A stretch of 63,575 bases of DNA, filler included, from Vannella sp. (taxonomy: Eukaryota): NCBI GenBank assembly GCA_023345925.1. It is 5 parts of 5 records of this genome, joined end to end, with 100 filler letters (N's around TTAATTAATTAA, not from the genome) between each part and the next. Parts side by side here need not be neighbours in the genome. Positions count along the whole stretch, not along the records: positions 19,327 to 38,101 come from JAJQQN010000363.1; 4 more parts are not named here. The stretch is one strand, 5' to 3'. The notes under the pieces are model-generated. The model saw nothing but the letters and a program-made list of their open reading frames with translations. It did not search any database and was not told the DNA's origin. Shown here piece by piece: positions 21,953 through 24,900 of the stretch. Every line of letters begins with the position of its first letter. The stretch's first letter is position 1. The translations under genes were made by a program, and so were the position numbers.

Positions 21953-24900
21953 TAGATCTTGAAGGCCACTGATGCAGTCGCTCTTATTGTGTAAGCTAAA
22001 AGGATAAAAGCTGCGAAAGTTGAAGTGCAATGGAAGTCAAACTGGAAACTTCTGCTGGACTTGGTTTTCTTCCCTCCCGTTAATCTTCATTAATCTACCA
22101 ATCAAACGAGCAGACTCACGCCTCAAAAACAGGAACTTCTCCTATCACAGAATGAACTTCAGAGGCCGATGGAATGAGGTGGAAGTGGGCATGACGAAGA
22201 TTTGCATGACCAGAAACGAGTTCCACATGGTGGACTGTTGGGTAGAGAATTTTCAGTGCTCTACTCAAATGCTGGCAAAAAGTCATCATTTCAGTCAATG
22301 TGTCAAGGGGAACCTTCTCCCTACTCCGTGTGAGAAAAGAAAAAAAGAAAAGAGTCCACTAACCATGAATCTAACGAGTCATTCGAGGCAACCACGCAAT
22401 GACCTGGTCGTAATGGATTGGTACTGATTAGACAGCTAGCTTTTGCACCTCTCAAAATCACAAAAGGGGAGCCTGGATGGTTCAACAATTGGAGTAAAGG
22501 AGACTTGGCTTCAAAATGAAGCGGTTTGAGTGATCCAAAGCGGTTTCCTTGAGACATACAGACAGGAATATCGCAAGAGAGGCAAACAGCGTTTTCCATC
22601 TCCTCTTTGATCAACTCAGCTGCCTCTTCGACAAGGACCTCAGCCACTTCGTAAACCAATTCGTCGTGGACATTTAAGATCAAACGAGCTGGCGTTCCCT
22701 GGAGTGTTTCATGATATAGTCTAGACAGCCTGATATCTATCGAATACATCGCAGCCTTGATAATATCACTTGCTGTCCCTTGAATAGGAGTGTTGATGGC
22801 TTGGCGCTCACTTCTTTTCTTCTTTGTTCGGTCTGTAGAGTTGATAAATGGAAGTAGTCTGCGACGGTTACTCAGAGTCCGTATCATCTTGTCCTTTCTA
22901 GCAAGAAGCACAATCTTCTGAGTCCAAGCCTTGATGTCTGAATAAGATGAGCAACGAACACTCAGTCAACTGCAGAACTCACCTGGAAACTTATCTAAGA
23001 AGGAATGAATAAACTTGGTAGCTTCAGAAGGCTCCACACCAAGCATTTCTCCCAATGAAACGCTCCCGATACCGTAAACAATGCCGTAGGCAATCTGCTT
23101 GGATCGATCACGCTCGAGTGGGGTGACCTGCTCAATGGGCTTGGACAACCAATGGCTGGCGATCATTGTGTGAATGTCGCTTCCGGATGCAAAGAACTCG
23201 TTAAGATAAGAGTCTCCAGTAACGTGGGCCAATATTCGCATCTCCAACTGTCCCACTTCAGACAAAGGTCGTCGAGTGTCAAGACTCTCATACCTGACTG
23301 TAATCTGCTGCAATCAATAAGTAACCTGGATGAGCAACAAATGCATTGCGAATGTTGATAATGGAGTCAGGACCCTGTGGAAGTTAGTCACTTAATCAAT
23401 CATCAGCCGATTAATTCATTACCAATTGGAGTACTCTCTTTGGTAACGATTGTAAGTTCGGGCTGGAGCAAGAAATCCTTCCAGTGGAAGTCCCAGTCTG
23501 ACTCCATTGAGAACAAATATAACTGCCGCCTTGGGGCTGAGGAAGTGCTTTCGCTGGGAGAGAGGAAATCCAATTGCTTAGCAGGTATTTGCATTGCCGG
23601 TAATCTAATACAAGTTGGGGGAATCGATGAAGGGAGACGAGCCCTTGGAGAGCAGAGTCTTTTGTTGCACCTTCCCACCAGGATTCAGGCTCGACAGTTT
23701 CTGCATCTTCACCAGCAACTGAAGTTCTCTTCTTCTTCTGCCAGGATCTCATCTTCGGCTTTGGTAGAGCGAGGTCGGAGTACAGAGCAGTCGCCACATC
23801 TGCAGGTGATGATAAAACTACTTTGCGATGTAATAGTGTGGTGGCCTCTTCAGCCAATTCTCGTTTGCGCGCTTGCAATGCTTCCTGGTATGATTTGATC
23901 CTCTCGCTATCAAATCCAATTCCGAAGAACTCCATTTTTGATAAACTGGGAACGACTCTCATCTCCACCTCGAGAGAATGAGTGAGATCATGACTAGCAA
24001 GTTGATGAGAGAGAGCACGGTAAAGTCTAAAGCAAGACAAGAGATCTTCAGTGAGCCTGGGAATATTGGAAGTGACTGAAATTGGCCCCGACCCCCGCCG
24101 CCCAACTGATTGTATGACAGTTCCAGGAGCTTGTAAAAACCGTGTCGATAAGTCTGAGTAACTGTAAGACGGTAACTCTGGGTTCCAAACCCAGCAGGCC
24201 ACTTTGACATCAAATAAACGCGTTGCGTTGGTGACTGTCCCTCCACTTTCAGCAAAAGAAAGCCGATTAGTCTACTTACCGTCTATCTCAGCTGAAAGAA
24301 GGGATTGGAGGATTTGGTGAAAGTCAAATCCGATCTTTTGAACTCTATCGCACTCAAGGACCCGCCGAATCAGGTCAAATTTCCTCCTAGCAGGTAAGAG
24401 AGCATCATCTGAAGAAGTGTCCTCTTCAGCGCCTTCCAAAGTGGATTTAAAAGAGAGGAAATAAGACTTTTTGCTTTGGGAAGGGTAAAGAACGATTCCC
24501 AAGCTCGTAGAACAGAGCCTCACTCGCTGGTCACTTAACTCGCTCTGCTTTGATTAATTGTGATGTGTAAGAGTAATTGAAGGTACTCACTGATATTTGG
24601 GAGGTTCGAAACGAGGTAGAATCGTACGAATAAATCACTGCAAACCCACAAATGATATCTTTGCTGTCTTGCGAACCATCCGAATGTCTCAAAAGCGCAG
24701 AATTGCCACTCAATGGCTTAACATGAAGTTGCAAAGCTGAGGGACGGAACTGATGAGGAAATAGGAGGCATTCTAATTGCTCCAAGATTTCGAGTGAGTT
24801 TGCATCTAAGCATTGTGGAGGAAGACTCCATTGCGAATGTTTGCTCGAGAGCTTCCGAATGTGCTCCTCTTGTTCCTCCTCCTGTTCTGTAATGATCCCA

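Follow-up and report, generated by a model that had tools for sequence, protein, structure and literature searches.

Our analysis showed that the window, a 63,575-nt stretch made of five joined parts of the genome of the amoeba Vannella sp. (GCA_023345925.1), very probably carries in its JAJQQN010000363.1 part one gene in which a family A DNA polymerase (PolA) reads on into a C-terminal histidine-triad (HIT) domain. A single minus-strand frame (22965-22324) runs without a stop from VHDELVYEV of polymerase motif C (HDE at 22668-22660) through GNRFG (22548-22534) at the end of the polymerase and on to PGH (22407-22399), with neither a stop nor an ATG between the polymerase end and PGH. A 43-nt GT-AG intron with a T-rich tract follows (22363-22321); we infer that it is spliced, and its removal keeps the frame into HAHFHLIP (22193-22170). 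The initial annotation had described this open frame, the intron and the triad, and all its coordinates agree with ours; its proposal of one gene for a repair-type PolA with a C-terminal HIT-fold domain is borne out by the frame, by profile scores and by two further lineages. As modelled, the gene has 8 exons and 1077 stop-free codons, with introns of 46, 45, 48, 46, 45, 43 and 51 nt and with the first in-frame ATG, at 25553, as candidate start codon (Table 1). Parts of 25400-25984 are open in all three minus-strand frames, which leaves the first polymerase exon ambiguous. At the other end of the gene, the lower bound given in the initial annotation (21953) implies a last-intron acceptor at 22085, whereas we prefer 22069, with the stop at 21998-21996; local alignment scores do not separate the nine candidate acceptors (all Z < 2).

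The fusion can also be followed in metagenomic contigs and in relatives. The DNA runs best matching the window were three runs of one biofilm-metagenome study (runs X4 to X7 gave only small pieces), and a single 665-nt contig of run X1, which may be the window's own source, covers the gene from motif C to the triad. The run contigs held 34 substitutions, 31 of which could be mapped; the 25 exonic ones comprise 16 synonymous, 8 missense and 1 nonsense change. An in-frame 6-nt deletion at 22564, near the last polymerase strand, occurs in run X1 and also in the database proteins P0271 and P0272. The tail itself was found in three lineages. The window cluster consists of six near-identical proteins from JGI and ENA with the same fusion-exon open reading frame (ORF). 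The second lineage (P0001 and P0121) is represented by the top match of our first protein search, P0001, a single 394-amino-acid ORF from JGI with a PF00476 domain, which can be aligned over its full length to the spliced protein of the window, the intron position included. The third, the P0132 cluster of 12 proteins, came from a profile search of 1.84 billion representatives, where it was among the best 150 matches listed; in its loci L001, L002 and L004, motif C and the entire HIT core lie within one exon. L002 has at least four intron positions in common with the window, and both place the C-terminal helix in a separate last exon behind a phase-2 intron. It is thus highly improbable that the fusion is an artefact of the gene model, produced by a separate HIT gene, a retained intron or a chimeric contig: the acceptor left unsettled by alignment scores and the reliance on predicted splicing would allow it, but the uninterrupted passage from polymerase to PGH, the recurrence of the exon in six database proteins, the single ORF of P0001 and the one-exon arrangement in L001, L002 and L004 all speak against it. 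A separate HIT gene was rejected on the open frame and on the single-exon fusion in the relatives.

The three tails probably go back to one ancient fusion of a Hint/Fhit-type gene, which persisted as the tails grew apart. In polymerase-domain trees (63 sequences, 283 columns, with bacterial matches subsampled and no named POLN included), the window and P0124 form one clade with P0001 and L002 (SH-like approximate likelihood ratio test (SH-aLRT) 88.6, FastTree 0.915), within which P0001 and L002 are sisters with a support of 100. P0124, the closest relative of the window at 66% identity, ends inside the polymerase. When each tail was scored on a profile of the other two, it beat the best of 28 canonical HIT proteins (17.1 versus 9.9, 39.7 versus 29.3 and 47.8 versus 26.7 bits), and none of 1000 shuffles reached these scores. 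The tails are thus closer to each other than to any of the 28 canonical HITs, which argues for a single origin. They are only 17-26% identical to one another, yet the fold, the upstream His, the third His of the triad and one Trp have been retained. Word-indexed searches with the tail profile picked out two of the 7991 longer candidates and two of the 746 of near length, every one of them from a known lineage, which is weak evidence of rarity. Of the 239 PolA loci that scans of metagenomes, genomes and viruses yielded, L001, L002 and L004 alone have the tail.

The tail was recognised as a HIT domain mainly once its two halves were joined. Scored on a profile of HIT proteins from 28 of 30 bacterial loci, the spliced tail reached 28.0 bits, compared to 6.6 and 8.9 bits for the separate halves and 5.5 bits for the best of 1000 shuffles; the tails of the two relatives scored 9.8 and 3.7 bits, below their own shuffle maxima, and were therefore recognised only jointly. 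A profile of all three tails gave 11 matches in the PDB at E ≤ 10, nine of which are HIT proteins, the best being 3LB5 (E 1.6e-4). Taken separately, the halves gave nothing significant in Pfam, NCBIfam or phmmer searches (best E 0.13), and the Pfam HIT family was matched neither by these halves nor by P0001 or P0132. Pfam detects the polymerase only, and the fusion is hidden from gene callers; the initial annotation had noted that the split across an intron hides it from the ORF track. The window tail shows three features of the HIT superfamily (HxHxHxx, the profile match and the upstream His), whereas P0001 and L002 lack HxHxHxx and keep the third His alone. As leads, the best matches of both relatives by Atlas features are HIT clusters (0.79 and 0.90), and the automatic JGI label of P0001 is Ap4A HIT hydrolase. 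An AlphaFold2 model of the L002 core reached a predicted local distance difference test score (pLDDT) of 82.8, and all Foldseek rows shown for it are HIT proteins (Hit-like, Fhit; template modelling score about 0.6-0.68). The core of this relative thus models as a HIT fold, the check proposed for the tail at the outset, in a partly circular manner, since 21 of its 24 alignment rows are canonical HITs. An earlier model of P0001 from 28 rows had a tail pLDDT of about 35-65, and its fold search returned polymerases only.

In its fold, its upstream His, the H-L-I-P type end of its motif, its C-terminal helix and the modelled dimer interface, the tail resembles Fhit and the long Hint-branch HIT proteins of Bartonella (3LB5), Candida (Hnt1, 6IQ1), M. 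smegmatis (3O0M) and B. subtilis (1Y23). Unlike the Hint-branch proteins, it is fused to a polymerase, has lost their ribose-binding Asp, their N-terminal Cys motif and their Asn/Gln loop, and has lost the nucleophile in two of three lineages. By its sequence, the tail is thus classed as a Hint/Fhit-type HIT fold that fails two Hint active-site features, and the protein is neither an aprataxin nor a POLQ.

The polymerase part is predicted to be a helicase-less, proofreading-dead enzyme of the Pol theta/nu-like type. Motifs A, B and C are intact, while the acidic residues of Exo I and Exo II are replaced. The nearest folds are Pol theta (ranks 1-15 shown). No helicase was detected in the window, L001 or L002 by tblastn with eight long POLQ N-termini, and the upstream neighbours of the polymerase gene are unrelated ORFs. 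In our trees, the window belongs, with moderate support, to a helicase-less clade of 29-30 of the 63 sequences (SH-aLRT 81/89, FastTree 0.90/0.88), separate from helicase-bearing POLQ and sister to the POLQ-containing group. Its named members are Entamoeba, Balamuthia, Cavostelium, Protostelium, Planoprotostelium, Ceratiomyxa, Synstelium and Tieghemostelium, with Gefionella at the base; the nearest named sister of the window is unstable, being either Entamoeba or Balamuthia. The window enzyme is like POLQ in its best fold matches, in the Tyr of motif B and in the absence of proofreading, and unlike it in the missing N-terminal superfamily 2 (SF2) helicase and the extra C-terminal HIT domain. 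Membership of POLQ was rejected on the lack of this helicase and on a tree placement outside helicase-bearing POLQ. The closer parallels are protist enzymes, a group described as almost unstudied where Pol theta/nu-like enzymes are concerned (PMC7515707): EhDNApolA of Entamoeba (PMC2919377), the 'DNA polymerase theta short isoform' of Tieghemostelium (KYQ93789.1), and the proteins of Planoprotostelium (PRP88768.1) and Balamuthia (KAL6041120.1) have the same PolA motifs A-C, are helicase-less, carry a dead exonuclease and have a motif in common with the window in the exonuclease-like domain, but none of them has a HIT tail. EhDNApolA is described as a nuclear, poorly processive enzyme that lacks exonuclease activity and bypasses thymine glycol (PMC2919377). 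By analogy with EhDNApolA and Pol theta, we infer a nuclear location and a function in lesion bypass or end joining for the window enzyme. A motif akin to the nuclear localization signal (NLS)-like PNPKRQRL of its N-terminal region (Table 1), SPPKKQR, is present in the N-terminal region of L002. The dictyostelid-type relatives P0240 and P0131 have other C-terminal additions (Arv1 and LYR in one, a TIG-like domain in the other), possibly fused gene models.

Whether the tail could act as an enzyme depends on which lineage is considered. In HINT1, a dimer, the middle His of the triad acts as nucleophile, the third has a catalytic role and dimerisation is needed (PMC5382946), and Asp43 is described as binding the ribose hydroxyls (bioRxiv 10.1101/2024.07.15.603568). 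The upstream and third His are kept in all three tails, while the first and middle His are present in the window only; in the sister branch (P0001, L002), the first His is replaced by Ser or Asp and the nucleophile by Gly or Met. The ribose-binding Asp, a position held by Asp or Asn in 27 of 28 references, is lost from all three tails, with Ser in its place in the window and L002. Also missing are the Asn...Gly-Gln-x-Val phosphate loop before the triad (in 3/3 tails), the Pro that follows the first strand pair in HIT references, and the N-terminal Cys motif of long Hint-branch proteins. We give about even odds that the window copy may still cleave a nucleotidyl bond, and, given the Ser in place of the ribose-binding Asp, its substrate would probably not be a plain ribonucleotide. 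Catalysis cannot be the role common to all the fusions, because the sister branch lacks the first His and the nucleophile. The suggestion in the initial annotation that the domain cleans DNA ends or sanitises nucleotides thus fails as a role for all fusions, but hydrolysis may persist in the window copy.

One alternative, somewhat unlikely in our view, is that the domain of the window branch is chiefly an active Hint-like nucleotidyl hydrolase, acting on AMP-X, ApnA or damaged or capped nucleotides near the polymerase, and that the sister branch carries its dead remnant. This would be compatible with dimerisation, which Hint enzymes need. It is favoured by the conservation of the upstream His and all three triad His in a domain less than 22% identical to any HIT examined, by the Hint, Fhit and Ap4A-phosphorylase types of its nearest solved relatives, and by the automatic hydrolase name of P0001. 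The replacement of the ribose Asp by Ser, the absence of the Pro and of the Asn/Gly-Gln loop, and the persistence of the fusion without a nucleophile in two of three lineages argue against it. The more specific idea of an aprataxin-like end cleaner, removing 5'-AMP from aborted ligations before repair synthesis, appears very unlikely. The likeness to aprataxin lies in a HIT fold in a DNA-repair setting with an HxHxHxx motif, which is intact in the window, and an attached DNA-binding enzyme could conceivably replace the zinc finger of aprataxin. However, aprataxin is described as having both a zinc finger and an FHA domain (PMC12552585), and neither is present in the window gene model: the preferred last exon has no Cys/His cluster, and none of the nine candidate ends looks C2H2/C2HE-like by eye. 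Aprataxin is also missing from the 11 PDB matches of the tail profile and from the fold-search rows shown, the ribose Asp is lost, and the nucleophile is gone from the sister branch. A profile rich in canonical HITs does match aprataxin (E 4e-13). We therefore rejected aprataxin identity, as the tail has no zinc finger or FHA domain and aprataxin is not among its nearest sequence or fold matches; the comparison drawn in the initial annotation did not hold.

We tentatively favour the reading, to which we give a little less than an even chance, that the HIT tail serves mainly to dimerise a nuclear polymerase of repair or lesion bypass and to hold a nucleotide, with catalysis optional. The last polymerase exon of a Pol theta/nu-like gene would run on into a HIT domain that pairs with itself through its long helix and edge strand, making the polymerase a dimer, and the tail would hold a nucleotide or phosphate, with or without hydrolysis. 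Two copies of the P0001 tail folded without an alignment gave 0.59, compared to 0.00 for the best of three controls, with at least 93% contact agreement between runs and a pLDDT of at least 76. Among microbial structures, 21 of 30 solved homodimers and none of 23 single chains attain the mark used for a dimer; for eukaryotes the figures are 17 of 29 and 0 of 30. The modelled interface comprises the long helix, the strand after it and the Trp that all three tails share; this is the usual arrangement of HIT dimers. Dimers of the Pol theta helicase are described as needed for the synapsis of DNA ends (PMC12009414), and by analogy a tail that dimerises might do for an enzyme lacking the helicase what the helicase dimer does for Pol theta. 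A bolder extension, which we consider quite doubtful, is that the HIT tail replaces the missing helicase dimer outright, so that two polymerases hold two broken ends for microhomology-mediated joining, and that in the window branch the change from Asp to Ser has adapted a live triad to deoxynucleotides or blocked DNA ends as substrates. By eye, we found no PCNA-binding motif at the C-terminus.

Several observations weigh against a mainly dimerising role. The dimer model was made on the P0001 tail and not on the spliced domain of the window, and the pass may reflect a memory of solved structures, because HIT dimers have already been solved; only one of seven eukaryotic dimers without an older solved relative passed. 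Interface positions are no better conserved than others (mean BLOSUM 0.65 over 25 positions versus 0.91 over 106). All 26 other complete-ended members of the clade are tail-less (≤ 1.4 bits on the tail profile), and a dimer module is therefore not generally needed, because these enzymes work without a HIT domain. Since P0001 and L002 are sisters, the loss of the nucleophile counts as one event, and the retention of all four His in the window branch, in spite of about 80% divergence, speaks for catalysis in that branch. Finally, a minor haplotype at 22890 (runs X1 and X3; 5 differences in 113 nt) has a premature stop in the polymerase palm, the one nonsense change among the mapped substitutions; it is possibly a dead allele or a second copy. 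The minor haplotype of run X3 differs in the next intron as well.

The lack of a tail in every named relative is also in keeping with the view of the tail as a passenger that arose long ago by accidental fusion with a neighbouring HIT gene, is tolerated and decaying, and has no role in the polymerase. The stepwise loss of active-site residues would fit this view, as would the far faster divergence of the tails compared to the polymerase (identity of 17-26% versus about 35-48%). Nevertheless, we think it unlikely, as the frame, the domain length, the secondary-structure pattern and the C-terminal helix have been kept over long branches, and the variation between L001/L004 and L002 is concentrated in the last intron, where 89 nt contain 4 substitutions and a 3-nt indel, compared to 2 differences within the fusion exon and none within the last exon.

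Both parts of the protein were already known, while their combination was not found in print. No fusion of HIT with polymerase theta, or of a histidine triad with a family A polymerase, was found in the open-access literature (supplements and subscription journals fall outside this scope), consistent with the initial annotation, which knew of no described PolA-HIT fusion, and the main text of the 2023 PolA reclassification, as far as covered here, contains neither 'HIT' nor 'histidine triad' as whole words (PMC10201439). A parallel is the PolA of N4-like phages, which carries a uracil-DNA glycosylase domain of family 4 described as lacking conserved catalytic residues (PMC10201439): this is also a family A polymerase with a degenerate enzyme domain, but the domain has another fold and is N-terminal, and the enzyme is from phage. 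The fusion bears on the arrangement on DNA of a Pol theta-like enzyme that lacks the helicase. Within a narrow clade of uncultured organisms, it provides a natural series: the triad is complete in the window and dead in P0001 and L002, and 26 relatives lack the tail. This makes three questions testable: dimerisation and end joining, the change of substrate without the ribose Asp, and the conversion of an enzyme to a scaffold.

Table 1. Features of the polymerase-HIT gene, in the order of transcription (positions in the window).
Feature	Position	Strand	Evidence or remark
Exon: low-complexity N-terminal region and start of exonuclease-like domain	24591..25553	-	Open frame; tblastn with Cavostelium homolog P0024; no Pfam match
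Basic NLS-like motif PNPKRQRL	25068..25091	-	Putative function
Exon: pseudo-exonuclease with replaced acidic residues at Exo I and Exo II	24280..24544	-	Aligned to PolA of amoebozoa (4) and bacteria (5)
Exon: last part of pseudo-exonuclease, thumb, first part of palm	23423..24234	-	PF00476 E 4.8e-19
Exon with motif A, catalytic Asp at 23305-23303	23294..23374	-	Next intron position common to L002
Exon with motif B, Tyr right after K-Q-I-A	22983..23247	-	PF00476 E 1.8e-28; next intron position common to L002
Fusion exon: motif C, polymerase end, linker of 5-8 residues, N-terminal half of HIT domain	22364..22937	-	Stop-free; PF00476 E 1.8e-35 (residues 5-143)
Ser at ribose-binding Asp position of HIT enzymes	22423..22425	-	Reference column D 24, N 3, T 1 (n=28); Ser in L002 too
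PGH, upstream conserved His of HIT fold	22399..22407	-	His in 28/28 references and 3/3 tails
43-nt GT-AG intron splitting HIT domain	22321..22363	-	Frame restored; P0001 and L002 intronless here, both align across
Exon with long HIT helix (22307-22242) and triad	22120..22320	-	Sole PDB match a HIT protein, E 0.13; dimer helix in model of relative
HAHFHLIP, complete HxHxHxx, middle His the predicted nucleophile	22170..22193	-	Alignment; role of His after PMC5382946
Last intron, phase 2	22069..22119	-	Donor clear, acceptor 22069 preferred; phase-2 intron at matching place in L002
Likely last exon, with stop (21998-21996) and the C-terminal helix of the long Hit/Hnt1-type fold	21996..22068	-	Predicted; collinear with ends of P0001 and L002 models

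The source genome is intron-rich, and the genes that neighbour the polymerase-HIT gene in the window are of ordinary eukaryotic kinds, namely VPS13, ataxin-2-like, RNase PH, ubiquitin-conjugating enzyme and phosphofructokinase. Directly downstream lies an intronless ORF of 596 codons (19464-21251, minus strand) with Trp/Tyr-Pro repeats, a C-terminal nuclease-like motif and no Pfam match, which presumably resembles amoebozoan and giant-virus repeat proteins. The divergently oriented neighbour upstream of the polymerase (26378-28225, plus strand) consists of two long ORFs with no Pfam match at E 1e-4. Elsewhere in the window, a 1911-codon uninterrupted ORF (32240-37972, minus strand) encodes a TPR protein with a ZZ zinc finger, a 567-codon ORF (13249-14949, plus strand) has FG-GAP repeats of an integrin alpha-like propeller, and two uninterrupted ORFs of 1711 and 1397 codons lie head to head (43355-48487, minus strand, and 48891-53081, plus strand) and carry bacterial Ig (Big_7) domains, in a genome otherwise rich in introns. 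A vitamin K-dependent gamma-carboxylase with HTTM and lumenal domains, here in a protist, is encoded at 55179-57079 (plus strand).

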